From: Alphaproteobacteria bacterium
Lineage (GTDB): Bacteria; Pseudomonadota; Alphaproteobacteria; CALKHQ01
DNA length: 64,000 nucleotides
Direction of reading: 5' to 3'
NCBI GenBank assembly: GCA_965227515.1
Contig: CBDDFZ010000001.1
Location: forward strand, 256,001-320,000
Shown here: one piece after another, positions 4,174 through 25,363 of the stretch
Numbering within the stretch: position 1 is the first letter of the stretch
Layout: each line of letters opens with the position of its first letter
Position numbers and translations under genes: made by a program
Notes under the pieces: generated by a model
Database searches by the model: none
Seen by the model: only the letters and a program-made list of their open reading frames with translations
What the model was told of the DNA's origin: nothing

Positions 4174-4280
4174 GGAATTTCTGATTCTATCCAAATACGC
4201 AGACGACGCGAACGCCGGGATAGAGCGCCCGTTGATTGACCGCTCATACCCGGCACGCCGACCAAAATGGGGTGTACATT

Positions 4281-5765
4281 ATGAAGACCAGCGTGCTGAA
4301 GGCCACGCTCGATGCGGTATTGGAGTCCCAGGCCGTCATTGAATTTCAGATGGATGGAACGATCCTAACCGCGAATGCGAATTTCCTCGACGCGATGGGC
4401 TATTCGCTGGACGAGATCAAGGGCAAGCACCACAGCATGTTCGTCGATCCGGCGGAAGCGAACGGAGCGCCATACAAGGCGTTCTGGGAGAGCTTGCGCC
4501 GCGGCGACTTTCAGGCCGCGGAGTTCATGCGGGTTGCCAATGGTGGCCGGACGATCTGGATCCAGGCCGTCTACTGCCCAATCAAGGACTCGCGTGGCAG
4601 GCCGACCAAGGTGGTGAAGTTCGCCACCGACATCACCGCACGCAAGCTGGAGAACGCCAACTATCAAGGACAGATCGAGGCCATCGGCAAGTCCCAGGCG
4701 GTGATCGAGTTCGAGTTGGATGGCACGATTATTACGGCCAACCAGAACTTCCTGGCCACGCTCGGCTACACCCTTGATGAAATCAAAGGCAAGCACCACC
4801 GTATGTTTGTCGACCCGGCCTACGCCGGCTCGGCCGAATACCACCAGTTCTGGGACAATCTCGGGGCCGGGCGATATGACGCCGGCGAGTACAAGCGCAT
4901 GAAGAAGGACGGTGGCGAGATCTGGATCCAGGCCAGCTACAACCCGATCAGCGATCCGATGGGCAAGCCGTTCAAGGTCGTCAAGTACGCGACCGATATC
5001 ACCAAGCAGGTGCTGGCGCGCCAGGAAGCCGATCGGGTCGGCAAGATCATCGATGCCAATCTGGAACAGATTGTGCAGAGCGTCACCAACGCCAACCTGC
5101 AGTCCGCCTCGGCCAACGGTGCTTCGGACCAGACCCTGACGACCGTTCAATCGATCGCCAGCGCCACGGAAGAGCTGGAGGCCACCGCGCGCGAGATCGC
5201 GCAATCCATGGTGGTCTCGCGCAGCGAGGCCGAGAAGGCGATGGCGGAGACCAACGCGACCGACACGTCGACACAGGCGTTGACGAAGGCCGCTGAGTCG
5301 ATGACCAACATCGTCAAGATCATTCAGGACATCGCCAACCAGATCAATCTGCTGGCCCTGAACGCCACCATCGAGTCCGCGCGCGCGGGCGAGGCCGGCA
5401 AGGGATTTGCCGTCGTTGCGTCCGAGGTCAAGTCGCTGGCCAACCAGGTGGCGTCCGCGACCGAGCAGATCACCGACGAGATCGCCGGCGTTCAGTCGGT
5501 CTCGGCCGAGGTGGTCAATCGTCTCAACGCGATCAAGCACGCGGTCGAATCGGTACAGACGAGTGTCACTGGCACGGCCAGCGCCTCCGAAGAGCAGAGC
5601 ATGACGATCCGCGAGATCGCCTCGAACATGCAGACCGCGTCCTCGGCTGTCAGCGACACCAGCGACGGGCTGAAGGGCGTCAGCCAGGCGATCGAGGAAG
5701 CCAACGCACTCGCCGACGAAGGCATCCGCCTTTACCGGGAGATGCAGTCCCAGCAAGCCGCCTAG
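4281..5765 (+). CDS. Soluble methyl-accepting chemotaxis protein with two PAS domains
   Basis: Two SQAVIEF..DGTI..AN.NFL PAS repeats; [34 protein letters not shown] signalling domain; no TM segment. Confidence 0.93.
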
Positions 5766-6120
5766 GACCACCAAGCCCGACAGTCGCGCGTGCCGCCCCG
5801 CTACACGGCGCGCCGCGGCTGCCGGTCCGTTCTTCCCGCCCGTCGACAGGGCCGAGACCGTCGAACAAGCCCCCGCGATCTCGATAAAGCAGCGACAGCC
5901 GCTAGAACAACCTCGATAACATCATTTAATTGCAACTTGCACACCCAGTACTGATCAGCCTGTTCAGCCAACAATGCTGAACGGGCCGCCTCCCGTTGTG
6001 CCAATTGACCAATTTTTAGAACATTGATGCTCGAATACGCCTGGATGTCTTCGGAATTTCCGGTCAACGCGGGTCCGATGACGGGGCTTGGGCAATTTTT
6101 TGAGTGAAAAGGTTGGGCTG

Positions 6121-7605
6121 ATGAACGGATCGGTGCTGAAGGCAATTCTGGCTGCGGTACATCGCTCGCAGGCGGTCATCGAGTTTGAACTGGACGGAAC
6201 GATCATCACGGCCAATTCGAACTTCCTGGACGCCATGGGCTATACCCTGGATGAAGTGAAGGGCAAGCACCACCGTATGTTCGTCAGCCCTGAATATGCG
6301 GACAGCGAGGAATACAAGGCATTCTGGGAGAGCCTGCGCAAGGGCCACTTCCAGGCCGCCGAGTACAAGCGATTTGCCAAGGGCGGCAAGGAGATCTGGA
6401 TCCAGGCCACCTACAACCCGGTGCTGAACGGATCCGGCAAGCCCATTCGCGTCATCAAGTTCGCCACCGATGTCACCGCCCAGAAGCTGCGCAACGCGGA
6501 CTACCAGGGCCAGATCGAGGCGATCCACAAGTCCCAGGCGGTGATCGAATTCAACCTCGACGGCACCATCCTGAAAGCCAACGAGAACTTCTGCCGGGCC
6601 CTGGGCTACCGCGAGCACGAAATCGTCGGCAAACACCATCGCATGTTCGTCGATACGGCATATGCAAACTCGGACGACTATCACCGTTTCTGGGAAACGC
6701 TCTCGCGCGGCCAGTTCCTGTCGGGCGAGTTCAAGCGCGTCGACAAGAGCGGCAACGAAGTCTGGATCCAGGCCAGCTACAACCCGATCTTCGATCCTGA
6801 CGGCCGCCCGTTCAAAGTGGTCAAGTTTGCTTCCGACATCACTGAGCAGGTGCATGCGCGCATGGAGGCCGAGCGCGTCGCGGAGTCCATCGAGCGGAAC
6901 CTAGACAACATCGTCGAAAGCGTGAACGCGGCCAGCATGCAGTCGGCATCGGCGTCGAGCGCCTCCGATCAAACGTCGTCCATGGTGCAGGCGGTCGCCA
7001 GCGCCACCGAGGAGTTGGAGGCCACGACCCGCGAGATCGCCCATTCCATGACCATGTCGCAGACGGACGCGGAAAGGGCGATGTCGGAGACAGAGGCAAC
7101 CGATTCGTCCACCCAGGATCTGGCGAAGGTCGCGGAATCGATGACCAATATCGTCAAGATCATCCAGGACATCGCCAACCAGATCAACCTGTTGGCGCTG
7201 AATGCCACCATCGAGTCCGCGCGCGCCGGCGAGGCCGGCAAGGGCTTTGCCGTGGTCGCATCGGAGGTGAAGACGCTCGCCAATCAGGTCGCGTCGGCGA
7301 CTGAGCAGATCAGCGAGGAGATCAGCGGCGTTCAGACGGTCTCGGGCAAGGTGGTCGAGCGGCTGTCAGCCATCAAACGCGCCGTGGAGTCGGTGCAGAC
7401 CAGTGTCACCAGTTCCGCGTCGGCCATTGAAGAGCAGAACATGGCGATGAAGGAGATCGCGACCAACATGCAGACCGCCGCGCAAGCGGTCAGCGATACG
7501 GGCGATGGGCTGAACGGCGCCAATGACGCAATTGGCCGCGCCAACGAGTTCGCCAACGAGGTGCTGCGGCTGCATCACGAATCCAAGGCAGCCCAAGCGG
7601 CCTAG
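6121..7605 (+). CDS. Soluble PAS-PAS methyl-accepting chemotaxis protein, tandem paralogue
   Basis: Same architecture and length as 4281-5765 with the same signalling hairpin. Confidence 0.93.
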
Positions 7606-13200: not shown

Positions 13201-13385
13201 CGGTTCTCCAACGCTCCAGTGCGATTTCGCTGCGCATCGGTCATACTCCGGCACGCTCCGGCCGACAACTCGGTTGATGACCGGCCCGGCCCAACGCGGC
13301 CGCCAATAACAAGACTGCCAACAACAAAATCGATGGGGAAATACGAATGCAGACTACAAACGGCGCCGGCCGGGACGGAGGCACC

Positions 13386-14399
13386 ATGGCGGGCATCGTC
13401 ACCGGCGGCACCTGGTGCGTCGACCTGAACAAGATCGTGGCCCACTGGCCGCCCGAGGACACCGCCGCCGAGATCGTGGAGATCGACGTGCATGGCGGCG
13501 GCTCGGGCTGCAATTTCGCGCTCGACATCAAGGCGCTCGACCCGACAGTGCCGGTGGAGACCATCGGCCTGGTCGGCGACGACGAGCATGGCAGGGTGCT
13601 TCTGGGCCTGTGCGACGGATCGGGGGTCGTGCGCGACCAGATGCATATCAGCGACGCGCTGCCGACCCAGTTCACCGATGCCTACTGCGTAAAATCCACC
13701 GGGCGGCGCACCCACCTTTACTACCCCGGCATCTCCACCCTGCTTTGCCCCGATCATTTCGACCTGGCGGCCACCACCGGCCGCCTGTTCCACCTCGGCC
13801 TGCCCGGCGCGCACAAGCCGATGGACAGTCCCTGGCAGGACCACCCGAACGGCTGGGCGGCGGTGCTGCAGGACGCCAAGCGCCTGGGCCGGACCACCAG
13901 CCTGGAGCTGTTCTTCGTGGCGCCCGAGCGCATGCGCGCGCTGGTGCACCCGTGCCTGCCGCTGCTCGATATCCTGGTCATCAACGACTACGAGATCGCG
14001 GCACTCGCCGACATGCCGGCGGTGGCCGGCGGCGATGTCGACCCCGCCCAAGTGCTGGCGGCGGCGCGCAAGGTGCTGGGCCTGGGCGCGATGCAGGTGG
14101 TGGCCGCGCACTACCCCGGCGGCGCCATCGCGGTCACCCGCGACGGGACCGTGGCGGCCAAGGGCTCTACATGCATCCCGGAGCGCGAGATCGTCGGCGC
14201 CAATGGGGCCGGCGACGCCTATTGCGCGGGCTTCGTCTACGGCTACCTGAGCGGCTGGGACCTGGACCGCTGCCTGGCGCTGGGCCATGCCTCGGCGGCG
14301 ATGTCGCTCACCCACGTCTCCACCACCAAGGGCGTCAGGGACTGGCAGGCATGCATGGCCCAGGCCGACGCCTGGGGCTGGCGGGAAATGTCGCTCTAG
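13386..14399 (+). CDS. PfkB family carbohydrate kinase
   Basis: GGGSGCN, GLVGDD, INDYE, GAGDAY signature. Confidence 0.9.
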   Translation: MAGIVTGGTWCVDLNKIVAHWPPEDTAAEIVEIDVHGGGSGCNFALDIKALDPTVPVETIGLVGDDEHGRVLLGLCDGSGVVRDQMHISDALPTQFTDAYCVKSTGRRTHLYYPGISTLLCPDHFDLAATTGRLFHLGLPGAHKPMDSPWQDHPNGWAAVLQDAKRLGRTTSLELFFVAPERMRALVHPCLPLLDILVINDYEIAALADMPAVAGGDVDPAQVLAAARKVLGLGAMQVVAAHYPGGAIAVTRDGTVAAKGSTCIPEREIVGANGAGDAYCAGFVYGYLSGWDLDRCLALGHASAAMSLTHVSTTKGVRDWQACMAQADAWGWREMSL

Positions 14400-15351: not shown

Positions 15352-16140
15352 TCAGTGGCTCATGATGATGTCGGTGAGCTCATTCAGCGACGTGTCGGCC
15401 TTCAGCGCGTCCTTCACGTTCTGGCCGTGGGCCATGATCGAGAAGCGGTCGCAGACCCGGAACGCGTGGTAGAGGTTGTGGGTCACGAACACGCACGACA
15501 CGCCGGATTCCGCCAGTTCGCGCATGATCGCCAGCACCTTCTCGGTCTCGCGCACCGACAGGGCCGAGGTCGGCTCGTCCAGCAGCAGGATGTCGCGCTT
15601 GAAATGCACGGCGCGCGCGATCGCCACCGCCTGCGCCTGGCCGCCCGACAATTCTTCCACCAGCAGGTCCGGCGAGGTGATGCCGGCGATGCGCACGTAC
15701 TTGTCCAGAATTTCGACCGCGGTCTTGCGCATCTCGCCCATGCGCATGAAGCCCAGTGGGCCCAGCGGCTCGCGGCCGGCGTAAATGTTGCGCATGATCG
15801 ACATCGACCGGACCAGCGCGATGTCCTGGTAAATGGTCTGGATGCCCGCCTGCTCCGACTTCTGCCGGGTGTGGATATCGACCGGCTTGCCCAGGCGCAA
15901 GAACTCGCCCTTGTCGGGTGTCACCACGCCGGAGAGGATCTTGATCAGCGTGGACTTGCCCGCGCCATTGTCGCCAAGCAGGCCGACCACCTCGCCCGGC
16001 CGGACCTCGAAGTCCACGTTCATCAGCGCGTTCACGTGGCCGTAGCTCTTGGAGATGCCGCGCGCCTCGAACAACGGAACCTCACCGTCGGGCCGGCTGG
16101 CGCTGGCGGCGGTCGGTGCGTCCATGGTGTCTACGCTCAT
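15352..16140 (-). CDS. Sugar ABC transporter ATP-binding protein (single domain, CUT2)
   Basis: GDNGAGKST, LSGGQ, LLLDEPT. Confidence 0.93.
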   Translation of the reverse strand: MSVDTMDAPTAASASRPDGEVPLFEARGISKSYGHVNALMNVDFEVRPGEVVGLLGDNGAGKSTLIKILSGVVTPDKGEFLRLGKPVDIHTRQKSEQAGIQTIYQDIALVRSMSIMRNIYAGREPLGPLGFMRMGEMRKTAVEILDKYVRIAGITSPDLLVEELSGGQAQAVAIARAVHFKRDILLLDEPTSALSVRETEKVLAIMRELAESGVSCVFVTHNLYHAFRVCDRFSIMAHGQNVKDALKADTSLNELTDIIMSH

Positions 16141-16186
16141 CGCGCGCTTCCTCCGGTTCCGGTCCCAGTCAATACGTCCACCGGCT

Positions 16187-17278
16187 TCAGAACTTCCGCC
16201 GGGCCACTTGGTTCACGATCACGCCGAACACGATCATCATGCCGGCAAATGCATCCAGGTAGAACGTCGGCATGCCGGCGTGGGTGACGATGTTGCTGAG
16301 CAGGTAGTAGACCGCCGTGCCGAAAACGATGCCGATCACGGAGCCGCGTCCGCCGGTCAGCGCCAGCCCGCCGACCACGCAGATCGCCACCGCATAGAGC
16401 TCGATGAAGAGCTGCGGGTTGGTTTCGGCCTTGCCCAGCCGGGTGATCGAGAACAGGCCCGAAATGAACGCGAATACCGAGCTGAGCACGAATGCCAGCG
16501 TCTTGGTGCGGATGACATTAATGCCGGCATACTCCGCCGCCCGCGCGTCGCCACCGGCGGCGAAGAAGTGGTTGCCGTAGCGGTGCCGGTTCAACAGCAG
16601 GTAGGCGATGACCGCCAAGACCAGGAACCACAGGAACGAGGCGGGCAGCCAGCCGAACAGATTGTCCCACATCACCGCCTTGAAGTCCTCGGGCGGCTTG
16701 ATGGTCAGCGCCTTGCGGCCGGCATAGAGCTCGACGATGTAGGGAGCGCCGGCGCGCACGATGAACAGCATGCCAAGCGTGGTGATGAACGACGGAATCT
16801 TGAAGTAGAGCGTGATGAACGCGTTGATCAGCCCGATGCAGATCGCGACCAGCATGCCGAGGAACAGCGACACCAGCCAGGCGCCGCCGGCCGCCGTCAG
16901 CCAGGCATCCTCCGCCTCCGAGAACCAGCCCCATTCCGCGATCACCGGCGTGGAGGCGTCATAGAAGACGGCCATGGCGAACGGCGCCGCGACGAACACC
17001 GAGCCCACCGACAGATCGAACTCGCCGGAGATCATCAGCAGCCCGACGCCCAGAGCGATGATGCCGAACAGCGGGATCGCGCGCATCAAAAGCGTCGCGT
17101 TGCGCTGGGACAGGAAGCGGAAATCCTCGGGGAAGACCAGCGAGGCGATCACGCAGCCGGCCAGCAACATCAGGAACAGCATCACAACCGGACCGGCCGG
17201 GTGCATGCGCACCCGATTGAACCAGCTCGACTGCTGGTAGCGGGCCGCGGCGTCGATGGTCTGGGTGGTCGAGGCCAT
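16187..17278 (-). CDS. Sugar ABC transporter permease (RbsC-type)
   Basis: GEFDLSVG, IPSFITTLG, ELYAVAICVVGG, GGRGS. Confidence 0.92.
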   Translation of the reverse strand: MASTTQTIDAAARYQQSSWFNRVRMHPAGPVVMLFLMLLAGCVIASLVFPEDFRFLSQRNATLLMRAIPLFGIIALGVGLLMISGEFDLSVGSVFVAAPFAMAVFYDASTPVIAEWGWFSEAEDAWLTAAGGAWLVSLFLGMLVAICIGLINAFITLYFKIPSFITTLGMLFIVRAGAPYIVELYAGRKALTIKPPEDFKAVMWDNLFGWLPASFLWFLVLAVIAYLLLNRHRYGNHFFAAGGDARAAEYAGINVIRTKTLAFVLSSVFAFISGLFSITRLGKAETNPQLFIELYAVAICVVGGLALTGGRGSVIGIVFGTAVYYLLSNIVTHAGMPTFYLDAFAGMMIVFGVIVNQVARRKF

Positions 17279-17280
17279 CG

Positions 17281-18378
17281 TCACGTCGACCTGCGCCTGA
17301 CGATGGTGTTGAGGATGACGGCGCCGATGATCAGCGCGCCGAGCAGGCCCTTGAACAGGGTCTCGGGTGCTGCGATCAGCACCAACACGTTGTCGACGGT
17401 CTCGATCAGGGCGGCCCCCAGGATCATGCCCAGGATCGTGCCCCGCCCGCCGAACAGGTTGACGCCGCCAACGACGACAGCGGCGATCACCTTCAGCTCG
17501 AAGCCGCTGGTGATGGCGAACGACGGCTCGACCTCGTTGATCATGGTCGCCTGCATGATGCCGGCGAAACCGGCCGCCATGGCACACAGGATGAAGGCGA
17601 TCAGCTTGGTGCGCCGAATGTTCACGCCAACCGCGGTCGCCGCGTCCTTGTTGCCGCCGGTCGTGAACATATGATTGCCGATCCGGTGCCGGTTCAGCAG
17701 CAGGTGGGCGGCGAAGCCCAGCACCACCAGCCAGACCATCTGCATGTAGATCGGATCGACGATCTCCCCGGTGAACAGCGTCGTCAGCAGGTCGGTCTGC
17801 GCCTCGCCGGTCTGCTCGCAGTCGCGGCAGGGGTAGAAGGCCATGCTGTCCATCTGCCCGCTGTTCGGGTTGATCGACACGAAGCGGATCACGCCACGCA
17901 GGATGAACATCATGCCGATGGTGGCGATGAACGACGGGATGCCGATCCACGCGGTCAAATATCCGTTCAGCGCACCGAAGATCGCCACGGTGAACAGGCC
18001 CGCCGCCACCGCCACGAGCAGCGGCATGCCATAGGTGGTGTAGACGATGGTGGTGATGAAGGCGGCCAGCGTGTAGGTGCCGGCGGTGGAGATGTCGAAC
18101 TCGCCGCTGATCATCAACAGGCCGACCCCGAGCGCGGCAATCGCCGTGGTCGGGATTTTCAGCGCCAGCAGCACGCGCAGATTGTCAGTGGTCGCGAAGG
18201 CGAAGTCCGACGACGCGAAACTCCAGATCAGGCAGATGGCGAGAAACGTCCCGTAGACGATGACGATCGCCGAGCCCTGATAGCGCTTGGCAGCCGTCCA
18301 CCATGCCGGGCCATGGTCGCGCCGGCGCGCGGCGGCCATTTCGGCATTGGTCATCTCTGTGGTCGTCTCGCTAGCCAC
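17281..18378 (-). CDS. Sugar ABC transporter permease (RbsC-type)
   Basis: GEFDIS, IPSFIATIG, ELKVIAAVVVGG, GGRGT. Confidence 0.92.
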   Translation of the reverse strand: MASETTTEMTNAEMAAARRRDHGPAWWTAAKRYQGSAIVIVYGTFLAICLIWSFASSDFAFATTDNLRVLLALKIPTTAIAALGVGLLMISGEFDISTAGTYTLAAFITTIVYTTYGMPLLVAVAAGLFTVAIFGALNGYLTAWIGIPSFIATIGMMFILRGVIRFVSINPNSGQMDSMAFYPCRDCEQTGEAQTDLLTTLFTGEIVDPIYMQMVWLVVLGFAAHLLLNRHRIGNHMFTTGGNKDAATAVGVNIRRTKLIAFILCAMAAGFAGIMQATMINEVEPSFAITSGFELKVIAAVVVGGVNLFGGRGTILGMILGAALIETVDNVLVLIAAPETLFKGLLGALIIGAVILNTIVRRRST

Positions 18379-18488
18379 GCTTCTTGCCCGCGCAATAACA
18401 GATCGAAGATGTACGGTGGAAACGGCCGGGCACCACCGCAGCGGCGGGCCCGGCCTTGTCTTTCAATCGGTTGCCGATCGGACGCGGC

Positions 18489-19469
18489 TTAGCGGTAGGT
18501 GCCGCCCCAATCCAGCGCGTACTGACCGTTCACCATGTCGATCAGGTTGTTGCCCGTATCGATGTCCGGCGGGGTCAGGCCATAGCGCACGGCGTAGGCG
18601 GCGAACATCACCGGCAGGAAGCCCTGCCAGAACGGCTGCTGGTCCATGGTGGCCGTGGTGACGCCGTTCATGATGTTTTCCATGATCTTCGGATTGGTAT
18701 CGAAGCCGCCATTCGGGATGCTGTCGATACCGGCCTCCATCGCCGCGTCGGGCGCGACGGTGGTCGGCGTGGTGCCGAGGCCGACGATGCAGGTGATGTC
18801 CGGATTGGCGATCAACGCCTGGGAGATCGCGGTCAGCGCTTCGGCGTCGACCGTGCCGGTGCCGATGACCTCCGACGTGATACCCGCCGGGTCCAGCGCC
18901 AGCTGCACGCCCTCGGCACGCTCGATGGCGTAGGTCAGCTCAGGGAATTCCACCGGCAGCAGGCAGTGGTCGCCCTCGCCCAGCCCGTGCTCGTCGATCA
19001 TGCGCTGGCCGATGATCCGGCCCGAGGCATGGAAGTCCTGGCCGACGAAGGCCTGGCGGGCGTTGCCGTCGGCGCCGTCGGGATCGTCGATGTTCTGCGC
19101 GATCACGATCAGCCCGGCGTCGACCGCCTTCTGCACCGCCTCGTCCAGCGCGTCAGGCACGGTGATGGTGGGCGCGACCGCGTCCTGGCCCTCGGCGATG
19201 GCGGTCTCGATCAGCTCGGCGTGACGGGCGGCGTCGCCGTCCGCGTTCACATAGGTGAGGTCGACCTGGAACAGGCGCGCGGCTTCCTCGGCGCCGAACT
19301 GCATCGGCTGGAAGAAGGTGGCACCGGAGCAGCAGTGCTGGATGAAGGTCACGCTGACCGGCGCAAGATCGTCCTGCGCCGAGGCGCTGCCGGCAATGCC
19401 AACGAGCCCCACGGCCGCCGCGGCGGCGGCCACGGCCCGCGAGAGTGCGGTTGTGTTTGCTTTATGCAC
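18489..19469 (-). CDS. Sugar ABC transporter substrate-binding protein
   Basis: GGAGG RBS then GTG 19469; signal peptide; AFVGQD, GGFD, ATMDQQPFWQG. Confidence 0.9.
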   Translation of the reverse strand: MHKANTTALSRAVAAAAAAVGLVGIAGSASAQDDLAPVSVTFIQHCCSGATFFQPMQFGAEEAARLFQVDLTYVNADGDAARHAELIETAIAEGQDAVAPTITVPDALDEAVQKAVDAGLIVIAQNIDDPDGADGNARQAFVGQDFHASGRIIGQRMIDEHGLGEGDHCLLPVEFPELTYAIERAEGVQLALDPAGITSEVIGTGTVDAEALTAISQALIANPDITCIVGLGTTPTTVAPDAAMEAGIDSIPNGGFDTNPKIMENIMNGVTTATMDQQPFWQGFLPVMFAAYAVRYGLTPPDIDTGNNLIDMVNGQYALDWGGTYR

Positions 19470-19569
19470 GGATGTTCCTCCCATTGGTTATGACGGCAGC
19501 TTAGGTTGGGGTTGCTGCCCACACAAGCCCACCGGTTCCGGTGGGAAACTGGTCCGTTGGGTCATGGCC

Positions 19570-20358
19570 CTACAGCTTGGCCATGAACGCCTCGAACTCT
19601 TTATCGTCGATCGGCACCAGGTGCTCGGGGCCGGGGTAGGCACCGCTTTCCACATCGGCGCCGAACTCCTTGAACGCGGCGATGCGTTCCTCCTGCAGCC
19701 GGTCGTACTCGGCGCGGAAGTTGCGGTAGACCTTGGCGTGGCGGGGGCGGTGGCCGCGGGTGTAGCCCAGCACGTCCTCGGCAAACAGGTACTGCGCATC
19801 GCCGCCAGTGCCGGCGCCCATCGACAGCATCAGCATCGAGGTCCGCTTGGAGATTTCGGCCGCCACCCGGTCCGGCACCACTTCCAGTTCGGCCGCGAAC
19901 GCACCGGCGGATTCCAACGCCTTGACGTCATTGTAGACCTTCATTGCGCTGTCGGCGGTCTTGCCCACCGCCTTGAAGCCGCCGGTCCAGGTGCATTTCG
20001 ATGGGATCAGGCCGACGTGGCTGACCACCGGAATGCCCTCCGCCGCCAGTCGGGCAACGATGTCGAGGCTGGCCGCGCAATAGACGCAGTCACCGCCGGT
20101 CAGCAGCGCCTTGTGGGCGGCGCGCAGGTAGTCGTCGGTGGTGCACAGCTCGCCATAGAGCAGGCCGACCTGGACGAAGCAGTCGCCCGCCGCCTCGCGC
20201 ATTTCCGGCGTCCATATCGGGGCGATGATCGACAGCATGTCGATGCCCGCCGCCGAAGCGGCCCGCGCCTCGTCGTGGCTGTCGACGAACAGCATCTTGA
20301 TCTGGCGCTTGCCCTTCATCGCCAGCATGTCGGCGACGGTATTGCGCGTTCGGTTCAT
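19570..20358 (-). CDS. PanB (ketopantoate hydroxymethyltransferase)-like protein, divergent
   Basis: HVGLIP, AGAFAAELEVVP, MGAG..GDAQYL..ED.LG, PRHAKVY and YP tail present; GDS loop and KxEG motif absent. Confidence 0.8.
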   Translation of the reverse strand: MNRTRNTVADMLAMKGKRQIKMLFVDSHDEARAASAAGIDMLSIIAPIWTPEMREAAGDCFVQVGLLYGELCTTDDYLRAAHKALLTGGDCVYCAASLDIVARLAAEGIPVVSHVGLIPSKCTWTGGFKAVGKTADSAMKVYNDVKALESAGAFAAELEVVPDRVAAEISKRTSMLMLSMGAGTGGDAQYLFAEDVLGYTRGHRPRHAKVYRNFRAEYDRLQEERIAAFKEFGADVESGAYPGPEHLVPIDDKEFEAFMAKL

Positions 20359-20657
20359 CGGTCCTCCCCAGGTCCGTTCTGCGCCGTCCGGTCTGTCGGT
20401 GCGACCGGTTTCGGCACGCTTTTGTTTGGCCGCGCCGGCCGCCCCGATGCATCGAGGTGCCTGGTGCTCACGCCATTGCGCTCGACACTAGGCCATACCG
20501 GCGCAGGTTCGAAAGCGCCACGACGCGGGCGGCGGCGCGTAAACGATAACAATTCTTGTGACAGGCGCGATTTGCCGGGTCGCCGGGCCCAGGCCGGCGT
20601 TGGCGGCAACGCGCCTCAATTTGATCCTCCCTGACGTATTTCTGTGTTGTTGGTACC

Positions 20658-20710
20658 GTTCATATCGCGTATGAACTCATTATGCGACATCAAAATTGCC
20701 TCATAATGAG
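20658..20710. promoter_or_regulatory. Inverted repeats in divergent promoter (candidate operators)
   Basis: GTTCATA-tcgcg-TATGAAC and CTCATTATG-N17-CATAATGAG immediately upstream of the LacI gene. Confidence 0.4.
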
Positions 20711-20734
20711 CTATTCAGCTCCCGAGGTGCCACG

Positions 20735-21784
20735 ATGAGCGAGACGCCGACCCCGCCGCGCCGCGCCACCATCAAGGATATCGCGCGGGCGACCGGCTAT
20801 TCGCGCGCCACGGTCGACCGTGCGCTGAACGGGCGCGGGCGCGTGCATCCGCGCACCGAGCAGCTGATCCAGGCCGCCCGGGAGAGCCTGGTCGAGAACC
20901 CGGTCGCGCCGTTCGACGTCGGCGTGCTGGCGGGATCGCCAATGGCGGCGGAGCGGCCGGTCGAGCTGCTGTTCCAGGTCGGCCGCGGCATGACCGACCA
21001 GTTGCGCGGCGTGTGCGCGGCATCGGACCGTCCCATCGACGTGTTCGACTTCTACCAGCGCGACAACGAGGCCGTGTCCAAGGCGCTGGAGCGGCTGTGT
21101 GCCGACACCGCCCATCCGCTGGTCGCCATCGTCAAGAACGAGGCCCGCAATGCACGGATCATGGCAGCGGCCCGGCAACGCGGAAAACGCATCGTCACCA
21201 TGGTGTCGGACGTCGACGCCCACGCGCGCGACGCCTTTGTCGGCATCGACGACCGCATGGCCGGGCGCACCGCCGCCTTCCTGATCGGCAATCTGCTGCG
21301 CGGCCAGGATGCGCGGGTCGGCGCGGTGCTGGGCAGTTCCAGCTTCCGCTGCCAGGAGGACCGCGAGATCGGCTTCCGCACCCACCTGCGCGGCGCCTTT
21401 CCCAACCTCACGGTCTGCGACGCGGTGCAGGGCGACGACTCCCCGGACAAGACGTTCCAGGCCGTGCGCGACCTGTTGCGCACCGAGCCGGACCTGGCCG
21501 CGATCTACAACGGCGCCGGCGGCAATGTCGGCCTGGCGGAAGCGGTCCGCGAGGCCGGCCGGGCCGGCGACATCTTCGTCATCGCCCACGAGACCAACGA
21601 CACCACCGTCCCGCTTGCCGAGGACGGCCTGATCCATTTCCTGATCGGGCAGGACACCGGCACGATGCTGGCGCGCGCGCTGGATCTGGCCGCGGCGCCC
21701 GAGATTCAGGCGGACGATGTGGTCAGCCTTGTGGACTTTTTCGTCTTTACGCAGTTCAACATCGGATCGGCTGCAATCGCCTGA
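20735..21784 (+). CDS. LacI family transcriptional regulator
   Basis: ATIKDIARATGYSRATVDRALNGR HTH; periplasmic-binding-fold C-terminus. Confidence 0.9.
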   Translation: MSETPTPPRRATIKDIARATGYSRATVDRALNGRGRVHPRTEQLIQAARESLVENPVAPFDVGVLAGSPMAAERPVELLFQVGRGMTDQLRGVCAASDRPIDVFDFYQRDNEAVSKALERLCADTAHPLVAIVKNEARNARIMAAARQRGKRIVTMVSDVDAHARDAFVGIDDRMAGRTAAFLIGNLLRGQDARVGAVLGSSSFRCQEDREIGFRTHLRGAFPNLTVCDAVQGDDSPDKTFQAVRDLLRTEPDLAAIYNGAGGNVGLAEAVREAGRAGDIFVIAHETNDTTVPLAEDGLIHFLIGQDTGTMLARALDLAAAPEIQADDVVSLVDFFVFTQFNIGSAAIA

Positions 21785-21832
21785 GGCCAACCGGGCGACG
21801 GATGCGGCCGCGTGCACGGAGGAATGCGCACC

Positions 21833-22858
21833 ATGACCGACACCGCAATTGGCGAGCGTGACAAGCTGGGCAAACGCGACAAGCGGGGTGACTGGCGCCC
21901 GCCCTATCTGTTGAAGCTGCCGGCGCTGTTCGCCTGGCCGCCGAAGCCGCTGGGCGTGCTGAAATGGATTTTCGGGTTCCCGGGCTATCTGTGGCCGTGG
22001 AACGCGCTCTACCTCGGCATCGCGGTGCTGACCTGGTTCTTCCTGACGCCCTCGCTGGCGTCGATGCAGAGCCTGGAGATCGGCTGGATCGCCATCATTC
22101 TCGGCCGCAACCTTGCGCTGACCGTGGTGTTCTACGGCGCGTGGCACGTCTGGTTCTACATGATCAAGGGCCAGGGAACCGACTTCAAGTACACGACCAA
22201 GCCGTTCGCCACCAACAACGACACCTTCCTGTTCAAGAACCAGGTCAAGGACAATATGTTCTGGTCGCTGGTCTCAGGCGTGCCGATCTGGACCGCCTAT
22301 GAGGTCGTGACCCTGTGGTTCTACGCCAACGAGTGGATCCCCTACATCAACTGGGAGACCAACCCGGTCTGGTTCGTGGCGCTGCTGCTGCTGATCCCGG
22401 CGATCCGCGAGGTCCATTTCTACTGGGTCCACCGGCTGATCCACTGGAAGCCGCTGTACGACAGCGTGCATCACCTGCACCACCGCAACGTCAATATCGG
22501 GCCGTGGACGGGCATCTCGATGCACCCGGTCGAGCACCTGCTCTATTTCTCCGGCGCGATCGTGCACTGGGTCCTCGCCTCGCATCCGATCCACGTGCTG
22601 TTCCATCTGCAGCATGCCGGCCTGTCGCCGGCCCAGGGGCATGTGGGCTTCGACCGCGTGGTGGTGGCCGGCAAGGGCGTGACCATCGGCAACTACTTCC
22701 ACTACCTCCACCACAAGTATTTCGAGTGCAACTATTCCGGCGACGGCCTGCCCGTGTTCGACAAGATCTTCGGGACGTTCCATGACGGGTCGGACGAGGC
22801 GCAGGAGCGCATGAATGCGCGCTTCATGAAACGCGCCCAGGCGTCCGCCGCCGAATAG
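21833..22858 (+). CDS. Sterol desaturase/fatty acid hydroxylase family membrane di-iron enzyme
   Basis: His boxes HFYWVHRLIH, HHLHH, HPVE, HYLHH; several TM segments. Confidence 0.88.
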   Translation: MTDTAIGERDKLGKRDKRGDWRPPYLLKLPALFAWPPKPLGVLKWIFGFPGYLWPWNALYLGIAVLTWFFLTPSLASMQSLEIGWIAIILGRNLALTVVFYGAWHVWFYMIKGQGTDFKYTTKPFATNNDTFLFKNQVKDNMFWSLVSGVPIWTAYEVVTLWFYANEWIPYINWETNPVWFVALLLLIPAIREVHFYWVHRLIHWKPLYDSVHHLHHRNVNIGPWTGISMHPVEHLLYFSGAIVHWVLASHPIHVLFHLQHAGLSPAQGHVGFDRVVVAGKGVTIGNYFHYLHHKYFECNYSGDGLPVFDKIFGTFHDGSDEAQERMNARFMKRAQASAAE

Positions 22859-22896
22859 CCCGCGCGACACACCAGACTGCAAACACGGAGACCTGA

Positions 22897-23211
22897 ATGA
22901 GTAACTGGATCGAGGCCTGCGGCGTGGATGACGTCGAGGAGGAAGACGTCATCCGTTTCGACCACGGCGACCGCACCTTCGCCATCTACCGCAGCCCCGA
23001 CGATGCGTTCTATGCGACCGACGGCCTGTGCACCCACGAGAAGGTGCACCTGGCCGACGGCTTCGTGATGGACAACACCATCGAATGCCCGAAGCACAAT
23101 GGGCGCTTCGACTACACCACCGGTGCCGCGAAGGGTGCGCCCGTGTGCGTGGCGCTGAAGACCTATCCGACCAAGGTGGAAGACGACCGCGTGTTCGTCG
23201 ATATCGGTTAG
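22897..23211 (+). CDS. mocE: Rieske [2Fe-2S] ferredoxin, MocE family
   Basis: ATDGLCTHE...IECPKHNGRFD. Confidence 0.85.
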   Translation: MSNWIEACGVDDVEEEDVIRFDHGDRTFAIYRSPDDAFYATDGLCTHEKVHLADGFVMDNTIECPKHNGRFDYTTGAAKGAPVCVALKTYPTKVEDDRVFVDIG

Positions 23212-23215
23212 TCCG

Positions 23216-24409
23216 GTGGCGGATGTCGTCATTGTCGGGGCGGGCGAATGCGGGGTGCGCTGCGCCTTCGCCCTGCGCGAGGCCGGCTTTGACGGCTCGG
23301 TCACCCTGATCGGCGACGAACCGCATCTGCCATACGAACGCCCGCCGCTGTCGAAGGAAGTGCCGGTGGCGGCGAAGACCATCGCCACCGAAGAGGCCTA
23401 TACAGAGGCGAACATCGACCTTCGTCGCGGCACGCGGGTGACCGAGATCGACCGCGCGGCCAAGTCGGTGCGGCTTTCCGATGGCGGCGATGTCACCTAC
23501 GACACGCTGGTGCTGGCCACCGGGGCACGGGCGCGGGTGCTGCCGGGCCTGGAAGACGCGCTCACCCTGCGCACGCTTGACGATGCCGAGGCCATTCTGG
23601 CCCGTCTGTCGCCAGGCAGCCGGCTTGCCATCGTCGGTGGCGGCTTCATTGGGCTCGAACTGGCCGCCACTGCGCGAGGTCTCGGCGCCGAGGTCACGGT
23701 GGTGGAGGCCGCCGACCGGCTGATGGCCCGGATCGTCCCCAGCGACATCGCACTGGCGGCCGAGACGCGCCACCGCGAGGCGGGCGTCGAGTTGCTGCTT
23801 GACGCCAAGGTCGACCGTGTCGGCGACGGCGAACTTCACCTGACCGATGGCCGCGCGGTGCAGGCCGATGTGCTGGTCGCCGGTGTCGGCTCGGTGCCGG
23901 AGACCGCGCTCGCCGAGGCCGCCGGCCTGGCGGTCGACCCCAACATTGGCGGCATCGTGGTCGACCACTGCTTCCGGACCGAGGACCCGGCCATCTTCGC
24001 GGCCGGCGACTGCTGCAATTTCCCGTGGGGCGGCGGGCGCGTTCGACTGGAAAGCTGGCGCGCGGCGCAGGACCAGGCCAACCACGTCGCCAACGCCATC
24101 ATGGGCCGGGACGACGCCTATGCCCGCGTGCCGTGGTTCTGGTCCGACCAGCACGACCAGACATTGCAGGTCGCTGGCCTGCCCGACCCGTTCGTGCAGT
24201 GCATCCGCCGCGACATCGGCGACGGCGCCTTCATCCTGTTCCAGCTCGATGCCGATGGCGGCATATTGTCGGCCAGCGGTATCGGCACCGGCAACGCGGT
24301 CGCCAGGGACATAAGGGCGGCGGAGAAGATGATCGAAGCGGGGATCAAGCCCGACCCGGCCGCCCTGGCCGACCCGAACAGCAATCTGAAGCGCCTGCTG
24401 AGGGGTTAG
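23216..24409 (+). CDS. Ferredoxin-NAD(P)H reductase (MocF-like)
   Basis: GAGECG, PYERPPLSKE, LATGA, GGGFIGLE, RLESW, VPWFWSDQ. Confidence 0.9.
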   Translation: MADVVIVGAGECGVRCAFALREAGFDGSVTLIGDEPHLPYERPPLSKEVPVAAKTIATEEAYTEANIDLRRGTRVTEIDRAAKSVRLSDGGDVTYDTLVLATGARARVLPGLEDALTLRTLDDAEAILARLSPGSRLAIVGGGFIGLELAATARGLGAEVTVVEAADRLMARIVPSDIALAAETRHREAGVELLLDAKVDRVGDGELHLTDGRAVQADVLVAGVGSVPETALAEAAGLAVDPNIGGIVVDHCFRTEDPAIFAAGDCCNFPWGGGRVRLESWRAAQDQANHVANAIMGRDDAYARVPWFWSDQHDQTLQVAGLPDPFVQCIRRDIGDGAFILFQLDADGGILSASGIGTGNAVARDIRAAEKMIEAGIKPDPAALADPNSNLKRLLRG

Positions 24410-24484
24410 TTTGCCTCGTTCGTGCCATGGTAGCGTGATCACATGGCACTGGTTTCGGGAAACTGCGGGATCTGGGGAAGCCAA

Positions 24485-25363
24485 ATGAGCCGCGTGCGCA
24501 CTGAGCGCCCACGCATCGCGACATGCATCACGTTGGCCGTAGCGGCCCTGATGTCGCTGCCAGGGACTCTGCTTGGGCAAGACACCGACACGCTCGCCGC
24601 GACCGCTTCCGGTCCGCTGACCTTCGTCGGGCAAGGCGACGATGAGGTTACTGTGCATGCGCCCGGGCCATTGGTGTTCACCGGCCAGGACCTGGGGCCG
24701 TTGACGGTGAAGGTGCAGGACACGCTGGTCTTCGCCGGCCAGGGTGTGGACACCGAATTGTTCGTCGGCCGCAATGCGCTGACATTCATCGGCCAGGGCG
24801 AGGACACACTGGCACTGTTCGTGCCCGAATCACTGGTATTTGCCGGGCAGGATTGCCTGAGCCCGCACGCCGAGCCATTGGTGGTGGCCACCGCCCTCGA
24901 CGCCGGCCCGCAGGGCTGGTCGGTATTCGGCGACGCGCACGGCATGACGGTCGACGGTGGCGGGTTGCGGGTGATCGACGACGCCACTGGCGAGGTCTGG
25001 TACTGGAACGCGCCCGCCAGCTATCACGGCTGCCGCGACCACTTCTACGGTGGCACGCTCAGTTTTCGGCTGAAGGTCGACCGCACCGACGAGCCCTTTG
25101 ACGACCGCGACGTCCTAATCATGGGTGCGTCCGGTGCCGCCATCTGGTTCGACACCGCGCGGAACCCTGGCGTCGAATGGACCGCCTACAGCATACCCCT
25201 GACCGCTGGCGTCGGCTGGATCGACGCAGCCACCGCTGCGCCTGCCAGTGAGGCCGTCATTCGCGCCGTGCTGTCCGATATCGAGGCATTGCGAATCCGG
25301 GGTGAATACCGCACCGGCGACGATATCGGTTGGCTGGCGGACGTGATCTTCAGGGCGCCATAG
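24485..25363 (+). CDS. Secreted protein with 18-aa LxFxGQ repeats and C-terminal laminin B (domain IV)-like domain
   Basis: Signal-like N-terminus; periodic LTFVGQ/LVFTGQ/LVFAGQ/LTFIGQ/LVFAGQ; WYWNAP..YHG....FYGGTLSF and VLSDIEALRIRGEY. Confidence 0.65.
   Translation: MSRVRTERPRIATCITLAVAALMSLPGTLLGQDTDTLAATASGPLTFVGQGDDEVTVHAPGPLVFTGQDLGPLTVKVQDTLVFAGQGVDTELFVGRNALTFIGQGEDTLALFVPESLVFAGQDCLSPHAEPLVVATALDAGPQGWSVFGDAHGMTVDGGGLRVIDDATGEVWYWNAPASYHGCRDHFYGGTLSFRLKVDRTDEPFDDRDVLIMGASGAAIWFDTARNPGVEWTAYSIPLTAGVGWIDAATAAPASEAVIRAVLSDIEALRIRGEYRTGDDIGWLADVIFRAP

Follow-up and report, generated by a model that had tools for sequence, protein, structure and literature searches.

What does a membrane oxygenase of a lipid-modifying family do beside a sugar-type importer and a relative of the pantothenate enzyme PanB? 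The question is raised by a nine-gene locus (positions 15352-24409) within a 64,000-nucleotide stretch from an Alphaproteobacteria bacterium (assembly GCA_965227515.1, contig CBDDFZ010000001.1, positions 256,001 to 320,000), referred to here as the window. Judged from its sequence, the locus is a moc-like system with a catalytic subunit that is not homologous to that of the MocDEF complex of rhizopine catabolism, and it is probable that the locus encodes a three-component oxygenase whose substrate is a sugar-like compound taken up by the cell. The reaction proposed by analogy is an oxidative O-demethylation in which the one-carbon (C1) unit would be passed to tetrahydrofolate.

The nine genes were arranged as two divergent operons in the open reading frame (ORF) calls, with every family confirmed by Pfam and NCBIfam, and all nine lay where a first-pass annotation of the sequence had placed them, as lacI-desaturase-ferredoxin-reductase on the plus strand and panB-like gene, substrate-binding protein, two permeases and ATPase on the minus strand. 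The plus-strand operon consisted of a LacI-family regulator (20696-21784) with LacI helix-turn-helix (HTH) and Peripla_BP_4 domains, a membrane di-iron His-box oxygenase of the FA_hydroxylase superfamily (21812-22858) predicted to be the catalytic subunit, a Rieske [2Fe-2S] ferredoxin of the MocE family (22897-23211) and a MocF-like ferredoxin-NAD(P)+ reductase (23216-24409) with Pyr_redox_2 (240 bits) and Reductase_C domains. Intergenic distances among these four genes were 27, 38 and 4 nt, the last running from the end of the ferredoxin gene to the start of the reductase gene. The minus-strand operon began with a PanB-derived protein (19570-20358) matching PF02548 over residues 75-243 only, which would not act as PanB and is proposed as a handler of the C1 unit, and continued with the importer genes. 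The divergent intergenic region (20359-20695) is presumed from its position to carry promoters and operators for the two operons. A promoter and terminator scan gave 0 promoter-like and 6 terminator-like sites, which was not above shuffled sequence, and an inverted-repeat search of the LacI region returned weak GC-rich palindromes only, with no convincing operator.

MocDEF, the rhizopine-catabolic complex of S. meliloti L5-30 and R. leguminosarum that Bahar and co-workers reportedly described in 1998 as a 'ferredoxin oxygenase complex', resembles the window system in its MocE-family Rieske ferredoxin, MocF-like FAD reductase, membrane His-box di-iron subunit and linkage to a sugar/cyclitol ATP-binding cassette (ABC) importer. 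The two differ in the catalytic subunit, which belongs to PF04116 (FA_hydroxylase) in the window and to PF00487 (FA_desaturase) in MocD, and in the regulator, which is of the LacI type in the window in place of MocR; the window also lacks mocA and mocC, and its binding protein is distantly MocB-like. When iolG and TIM-barrel queries from moc-like plasmids were run against the whole genome by tblastn, no MocA-like (Gfo/Idh/MocA) or MocC-like TIM-barrel gene was found in the window, and as the binding protein is merely a distant relative of MocB the initial remark that the window holds no mocABC genes was upheld. In rhizopine catabolism mocDEF forms a rhizopine-inducible unit (PMC10107442).

The ferredoxin passed the curated MocE model TIGR02377 (176.8 bits, cut-off 136.15), was 76-78% identical to MocE of R. 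etli and Nitratireductor plasmids and was the sole match in its own genome with this query. Identities between window proteins and those of mocDEF-like clusters were 66-78% for the ferredoxin, 51-61% for the reductase and 62-73% for the PanB-like protein. The window oxygenase gave no tblastn match at the mocD loci, and an hhalign comparison of its family (PF04116) with the MocD family (PF00487) returned a probability of 0.2%. Since no homology between the oxygenase and MocD was detectable, the catalytic subunit appears to have been replaced by a member of another His-box family, and the redox chain, PanB-like protein and regulator type to have been retained. The use of MocE/MocF-type redox partners by the oxygenase family is well supported, and electrons would presumably reach the window oxygenase by this route.

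In R. etli CIAT652 pA and CFN42 p42e a LacI gene adjoined FA-desaturase (mocD), MocE, reductase (mocF) and PanB-like genes. A Marivivens plasmid carried LacI next to FA desaturase and MocE and, further on, PanB-like, TIM-barrel, binding protein, permease, ATPase, iolG, iolC and iolD genes. On a Nitratireductor plasmid iolG, ABC transporter and TIM-barrel genes were followed by LacI and by FA desaturase, MocE, reductase and purU, and an S. meliloti plasmid gave tblastn matches to LacI, MocE-like, reductase-like and PanB-like proteins in that order, the interval between LacI and the ferredoxin not having been checked. All four kinds of cluster resemble the window locus in regulator type, in ferredoxin and reductase and, Nitratireductor apart, in the PanB-like protein, these being orthologous or nearly so at 51-78% identity, and they share a sugar ABC-type importer as well. 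The MocD-type plasmid clusters differ in their oxygenase family, and several add a TIM barrel and adjoin iol genes or purU, neither of which is seen in the window. The purU gene, encoding formyl-tetrahydrofolate deformylase, was found in two moc-like clusters, the Nitratireductor plasmid and locus L105.

Other clusters combined the two oxygenase families or carried PF04116 alone. Loci L010 and L038 had an ABC transporter orthologous to that of the window, together with a LacI-oxygenase pair, two (L010) or one (L038) FA_desaturase genes and one reductase; a ferredoxin was additionally present at L038 and a rhamnose-mutarotase-domain protein at L010. In a genome of the same family (G079) genes for a LacI regulator (61% identical) and the oxygenase (76%) adjoined an ABC transporter and a Gfo/Idh/MocA gene; a PanB-like gene (79%) was located about 5 kb past the transporter, and MocE and reductase accompanied a MocD-like gene on another contig. 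Mesorhizobium and Bradyrhizobium plasmids carried AraC adjoining ribokinase, PanB-like, oxygenase, Rieske and reductase genes. On these gene orders MocD-type and PF04116 oxygenases appear to be interchangeable or combined around shared partners.

A third kind of oxygenase was found with the second PanB-like gene of the organism's own genome, which is 41% identical to that of the window and lies outside it (G000:C1:3880367-3888133, L092). There AraC adjoined a PhyH-type Fe/2OG dioxygenase, a permease, a binding protein, a double-domain ATPase, ribokinase and the PanB-like gene, convergent with iolC. Identity to the Mesorhizobium and Bradyrhizobium clusters, which have a PF04116 oxygenase, Rieske protein and reductase where L092 has PhyH, was 63-65% for the PanB-like protein, 61-62% for ribokinase and 36-37% for AraC. 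As L092 is orthologous to these clusters save for the oxygenase, a third oxygenase kind would serve the same module. PanB-like proteins were therefore seen to accompany three unrelated oxygenase types (MocD-type, PF04116 and PhyH-type), and the catalytic subunit would have been freely swapped around a conserved core of ferredoxin, reductase and PanB-like protein.

The assignment of the window oxygenase to its superfamily came from Pfam (PF04116, 65.5 bits, cut-off 31), with NCBIfam returning no match for this protein. The His boxes quoted in the first-pass annotation (HxxxxHRxxH, HHLHH, HPVE, HYLHH) were present and, as H202/H207/R208/H211, H220/H223/H224, H238-P-x-E241-H242 and H297/H300/H301, were invariant in 26 aligned family members together with H261 and H277, giving thirteen invariant histidines. 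An AF2 model (pLDDT 79.6) had long helices in its N-terminal half, and the best solved match by VIA-align was the Scs7p hydroxylase (4zr0_B; Z 6.2, rmsd 5.1, 187 residues), at a Z that is common among helical proteins; the match agrees with Pfam but is weak and not decisive. A Foldseek search of the model against the PDB gave nothing at E<=0.001 and a PDB sequence search nothing at E<=1. Among databases 4602 relatives were found (E<=0.001), the best 120 of which were 54-78% identical, and wherever the source named them it was as the sterol desaturase family.

The neighbours of this family were surveyed by tblastn with a protein panel within 10 kb of the best-scoring 79 of at least 574 oxygenase loci, both 10-kb flanks being complete in 41 and cut by contig ends in 38, and the families of cluster representatives were confirmed by Pfam. 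CUT2-type permeases were found at 27/79 loci, short-chain dehydrogenases/reductases (SDR) at 20/79, LacI at 18/79, MocE-type ferredoxins at 16/79, aldo/keto reductases (AKR) at 15/79 and creatininase-family proteins at 13/79. The reductase and xylose-isomerase-like TIM barrels each occurred at 10/79 loci, Gfo/Idh/MocA dehydrogenases and DeoR each at 8/79, and PanB-like genes at 4/79. In the family tree the links to ferredoxin, reductase and PanB-like genes were scattered across several oxygenase clades. A setting in sugar or polyol catabolism and not in lipid metabolism is well supported for the family by these sugar transporters and sugar/polyol enzymes, in keeping with the sugar/cyclitol context first suggested for the 'sterol desaturase' of the window. 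The panel and the neighbour clusters held no lipid-synthesis gene, lipid neighbours not having been looked for directly.

This setting bears on a rival explanation, in which the substrate of the PF04116 protein is a lipid of the membrane (sterol, hopanoid, sphingolipid or ornithine lipid) and its position next to a sugar importer is a coincidence; we consider this very improbable. With the lipid enzymes of the superfamily (Scs7p, 4zr0/4zr1) it shares the His-box pattern and membrane helices, and both the Pfam family and the closest, though weak, structural match, a sphingolipid hydroxylase (Z 6.2), are those of lipid enzymes; in addition, context was incomplete at the 38/79 loci cut by contig ends. 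However, linkage to LacI/DeoR, sugar ABC transporters and sugar/polyol enzymes recurred across clades, the oxygenase was co-operonic with LacI both here and in G079, and the 21 paralogues carried by one genome would fit catabolic diversification better than lipid tailoring. The window protein also differs from the lipid enzymes in its sugar catabolic context and in its electron donor, which is a Rieske ferredoxin with its reductase and not cytochrome b5.

That genome (G155; loci L096, L099-L102, L126-L128), from an alphaproteobacterium, had 21 oxygenase matches of 48-73% identity, two of them with a stop codon, and several of the genes were in tandem or clustered with MocD-like genes. It also had five PanB-like copies (72-79%) and just two MocE-like ferredoxins. 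In the organism studied here an oxygenase paralogue of 63% identity (G000:C2:1320116-1321111, L093), with no ferredoxin nearby, was located between an FkbM-type methyltransferase gene and an operon for a urea/amide-type (Peripla_BP_5, Urt-like) ABC transporter. The MocD-like FA desaturase of this organism (G000:C1:1427654-1432391, L094), 52% identical to R. etli MocD, was outside sugar clusters; its neighbours encoded a PhyH dioxygenase, a winged-HTH methyltransferase, an EamA transporter and a DinB/FGE-sulfatase-domain protein.

Four gene families were compared in the same set of 401 class-level genomes. The oxygenase family (E<=1e-60) was present in 25/401 genomes, PanB-like proteins (E<=1e-30) in 24/401, and the MocE family (E<=1e-30) and MocD-like proteins (E<=1e-50) each in 17/401. 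Oxygenase and MocE occurred together in 11 genomes (1.06 expected), PanB-like and MocE in 12 (1.02 expected) and oxygenase and PanB-like in 11 (1.5 expected), an overlap of about ten times the chance expectation, and all three were present in nine genomes. An oxygenase or MocD-like gene was found in 16/17 MocE genomes and in 17/24 PanB-like genomes. MocE was present in 7/7 other genomes with a PanB-like protein at least 55% identical to that of the window and in 4/16 where the identity was 33-48%. Co-occurrence in other genomes, which the first-pass annotation had set beforehand as a test that could refute its reading, was thus found both locally in several lineages and at the genome level.

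The PanB-like protein scored 97.7 bits against TIGR00222 (cut-off 207.55), over profile positions 119-261 only. Its C-terminal two thirds could be aligned to E. coli PanB (1m3u) with an E of 1.1e-22, and as the N-terminal 48 residues were unaligned D45 was not mapped. Within the alignment H136 and E181 were common to both proteins, whereas D84, K112 and E114 were replaced by G65, Y93 and A95, of which G65 and Y93 were invariant within the PanB-like subfamily. We take D84, K112 and E114 to be residues of the metal and keto-acid site of E. coli PanB. The translation also lacked the GDS tripeptide, as had been remarked at the outset in calling the protein a GDS-less PanB paralogue. Neither a canonical panB (TIGR00222 over cut-off) nor panC (TIGR00018) was found in the organism's own genome, which is 99.67% complete, and the organism may need external pantothenate. 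A search of 21 genomes of relatives found nine without any PanB-family match and eight with one over the cut-off.

A comparable paralogue has been described in R. etli CFN42 (Villasenor et al. 2011, PMC3082293), where the second panB copy on p42e keeps 5/12 invariant active-site residues, has no detectable metal-binding domain and does not rescue a panB mutant. The PanB-like gene of p42e lies inside the cluster of LacI, FA desaturase, MocE and reductase described above and its product is 62% identical to the window protein; the published paralogue was equated with it by position only, because the record carries no old locus tag. The loss of residues, the missing panC and the work on the R. etli paralogue together suggest that the window protein does not work as PanB, which agrees with the first-pass annotation.

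It would accordingly be most surprising if the gene were the organism's ketopantoate hydroxymethyltransferase. Such a role is favoured by the failure to find a canonical panB in the genome and by database sources, which name the family 3-methyl-2-oxobutanoate hydroxymethyltransferase and hold 6157 PanB-family matches, true PanBs included. It is opposed by the absence of panC as well, by the replaced D84, K112 and E114, by the score of less than half the TIGR00222 cut-off (97.7 vs 207.55 bits) and by the lack of panB complementation by the R. etli p42e copy, taken as an orthologue (PMC3082293). The PanB-like subfamily was 77-84% identical over the best 120 database clusters, which included Rhizobium, Thiolinea, Thiothrix and Ostreiculturibacter. 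This is above the 54-78% of the listed oxygenase relatives and so fits a role that does not depend on the substrate.

What reaction, then, would such a set of proteins carry out? In the reading preferred here, the LacI-controlled locus would be catabolic and its sugar-type ABC importer would take up a monosaccharide-like or cyclitol-like solute, which the three-component monooxygenase would hydroxylate with electrons passing from NAD(P)H through the FAD reductase and the MocE-family Rieske ferredoxin to the membrane di-iron His-box oxygenase. The likeliest target of hydroxylation would be an O-methyl carbon. The hydroxylated methyl would form a hemiacetal that splits into a C1 unit and the free sugar or cyclitol, amounting to an oxidative O-demethylation, and the PanB-derived protein would pass the C1 unit, as formaldehyde or a hydroxymethyl group, to tetrahydrofolate. 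We place the chain as a whole, from import to tetrahydrofolate, at somewhat short of an even chance, and its hydroxylation site, folate step and substrate are suggested by analogy. O-demethylation with C1 transfer to folate is preferred because PanB-like genes accompany three unrelated oxygenases with little in common except the ability to hydroxylate a methyl group, because the parent family of the PanB-like protein is a folate C1 transferase and because purU occurs in two related clusters.

Two other enzymes provide partial precedents. Within the FA_hydroxylase superfamily, alkylglycerol monooxygenase cleaves an ether by hydroxylation next to the oxygen. In marine bacteria a cytochrome P450 with its redox partners is the 6-O-methyl-D-galactose O-demethylase, and among the searchable papers this was the only sugar O-demethylase with shown activity (PMC10033563, PMC9400963, PMC6292453). 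The proposed logic is alike in that a redox-fed monooxygenase strips a methyl ether from an imported sugar with release of a C1 unit; the P450 differs in being a soluble haem enzyme, where that of the window is a membrane di-iron protein, and in that its formaldehyde is detoxified by a separate pathway with no PanB-like protein.

The same oxygenase and importer could instead perform a C-H hydroxylation other than demethylation, such as that of C1 of a 1,5-anhydro-alditol to give an aldose or that of a deoxy sugar or deoxy-inositol, with the PanB-like protein acting on a keto-sugar intermediate and not on a C1 unit. We regard this as unlikely, though it deserves consideration, as the sugar/polyol context of the oxygenase family suits any hydroxylation. 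The AKR genes at 15/79 loci and the Gfo/Idh/MocA genes at 8/79 loci and in G079 are of types that produce or consume anhydro-alditols and inososes, and the PanB fold is an enolate-stabilising one; the metal ligands for enolate chemistry have, however, been lost from the PanB-like protein. The 1,5-anhydromannitol C1 hydroxylase of Rhizobiaceae is still unidentified according to a 2025 review (PMC12441222). Against such a hydroxylase, purU in two moc-like clusters points to folate C1 traffic, and the multiple oxygenases with one redox chain at L010 and L038 would better fit the removal of several methyl groups.

A further alternative keeps demethylation and separates it from the PanB-like protein, so that the oxygenase would remove an O- or N-methyl group from an imported sugar, cyclitol or amino-cyclitol and the PanB-like protein would be, for example, a structural partner, isomerase or regulator unrelated to the C1 unit. 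The catalytic metal site of this protein is gone and its gene often stands alone, with 17/29 loci far from any oxygenase. Yet it was strongly tied to MocE, being present in 12/17 MocE genomes with MocE in 7/7 genomes with a copy of at least 55% identity, its link extends to three unrelated oxygenase types, and its very high conservation fits a shared small co-substrate. On balance we judge this alternative improbable, rather more so than a hydroxylation elsewhere on the sugar.

Several observations weigh against O-demethylation coupled to folate. The demethylation of 3-O-methyl-scyllo-inosamine (3-O-MSI) by MocDEF is itself a proposed model. Genes for formaldehyde or folate C1 metabolism are missing from the window, and downstream sugar or inositol enzymes from the cluster. 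With the known catalytic residues of PanB lost, the use of folate by the PanB-like protein is a guess. Local linkage was patchy, with a PanB-like gene near only 4/79 oxygenase loci among the best-scoring 79 of at least 574, and at 17/29 PanB-like loci no oxygenase or ferredoxin of the panel lay within 9 kb, the scanned neighbours there being unrelated (FtsJ, sensor kinases, transposases, FtsH and others). MocE was missing at E<=1e-30 from 14/25 oxygenase genomes and is therefore not an obligate partner of the oxygenase family. One large oxygenase clade was linked instead to AKR and creatininase-family genes and may carry out a different chemistry. Several of the 401 genomes are also close kin and not independent, so that Fisher p-values overstate the co-occurrence. 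Of the original interpretation, the sugar context, the MocE/MocF-type partners and the co-occurrence were borne out, by comparative genomics only; O-demethylation, folate C1 transfer and the substrate are argued by analogy, and the local linkage proved far from universal.

At the oxygenase loci L012, L014-L016, L023, L024, L034, L037, L042, L055, L059, L061 and L069, AKR and creatininase-family (PF02633) genes flanked the oxygenase with no ferredoxin nearby, and most of these loci fell within one clade of the tree.

The importer had the composition of a CUT2-type system, in that Peripla_BP_4, BPD_transp_2 permeases and a sugar-type ATPase were all present. On the minus strand these were a periplasmic binding protein of monosaccharide/cyclitol type (18489-19484; Peripla_BP_4, 127 bits), two sugar-type permeases (17281-18378; PF02653, 148.5 bits, and 16187-17251; PF02653, 135 bits, with AraH and MglC as best NCBIfam matches for the latter, both under the cut-off) and an ATPase of 262 aa with a single nucleotide-binding domain (15352-16140; PF00005, 107 bits). 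The ATPase matched only the first half of the CUT2 models YtfR, XylG and RbsA, which are of about 500 aa and have two nucleotide-binding domains. The pairing of this single-domain ATPase (15352-16140) with two separate permease genes is a departure from the CUT2 models. Identity to the corresponding proteins at L010 and L038 was 76% for the binding protein and 83-85% for the ATPase.

Which solute would be imported is suggested mainly by related genes. The best NCBIfam match of the binding protein was the rhizopine binding protein, at 87.6 bits far under the cut-off of 420, and its closest solved relative was 4ru1 (E 3.5e-18), solved relatives being too distant for substrate inference. An O-methyl cyclitol is favoured by the rhizopine-like binding protein and by the iol genes beside related clusters, an O-methyl aldose by the L010 mutarotase. 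Plant and algal material is rich in methyl-ether sugars and cyclitols, including pinitol, ononitol, methylated fucose, rhamnose and galactose, and 4-O-methylglucuronate.

A literature search, with most subscription journals outside its reach, found no paper assigning a sugar-catabolic function to the oxygenase family or the PanB-like protein. The FA hydroxylase of PMC5789663 is another gene, under nod-box control. If O-demethylation with C1 transfer to folate is true, thousands of proteins named 'sterol desaturase' would need renaming, given 4602 relatives, as would some '3-methyl-2-oxobutanoate hydroxymethyltransferase' entries among the 6157 matches. It would also offer a role for the widespread moc-like clusters of rhizobia that do not use rhizopine and a testable model for keeping formaldehyde out of the cytoplasm during demethylation. 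The broadest form of this proposal, in which the Proteobacterial PF04116 proteins are a large unrecognised class of membrane di-iron O-demethylases of methylated sugars and cyclitols, and the PanB paralogues without a metal site are a new folate-dependent enzyme that draws the hydroxymethyl or formaldehyde unit directly from the hemiacetal and serves three oxygenase classes with no free formaldehyde, is speculative, with the odds clearly against it.

The flanks of the nine-gene locus were unrelated and encoded an acyl-CoA dehydrogenase, Sua5, a Laminin_B-domain protein, a PfkB kinase and an SDR. The PfkB kinase (13347-14399) was considered as a pathway member and dropped, since the related clusters had no counterpart. 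Directly after the reductase gene was the Laminin_B ORF (24443-25363, 306 aa), with a C-terminal Laminin_B domain (52 bits) and an N-terminal half of repeated ...(L/V)(T/V)F(V/T/A/I)GQ(G/D)... motifs, also without a counterpart in the related clusters. Elsewhere in the window, 4236-5765 and 6088-7605 encoded adjacent paralogous methyl-accepting chemotaxis proteins, both soluble with a double PAS domain, and the GC content of this stretch (4236-7605) was lower at about 0.60 compared to 0.68.

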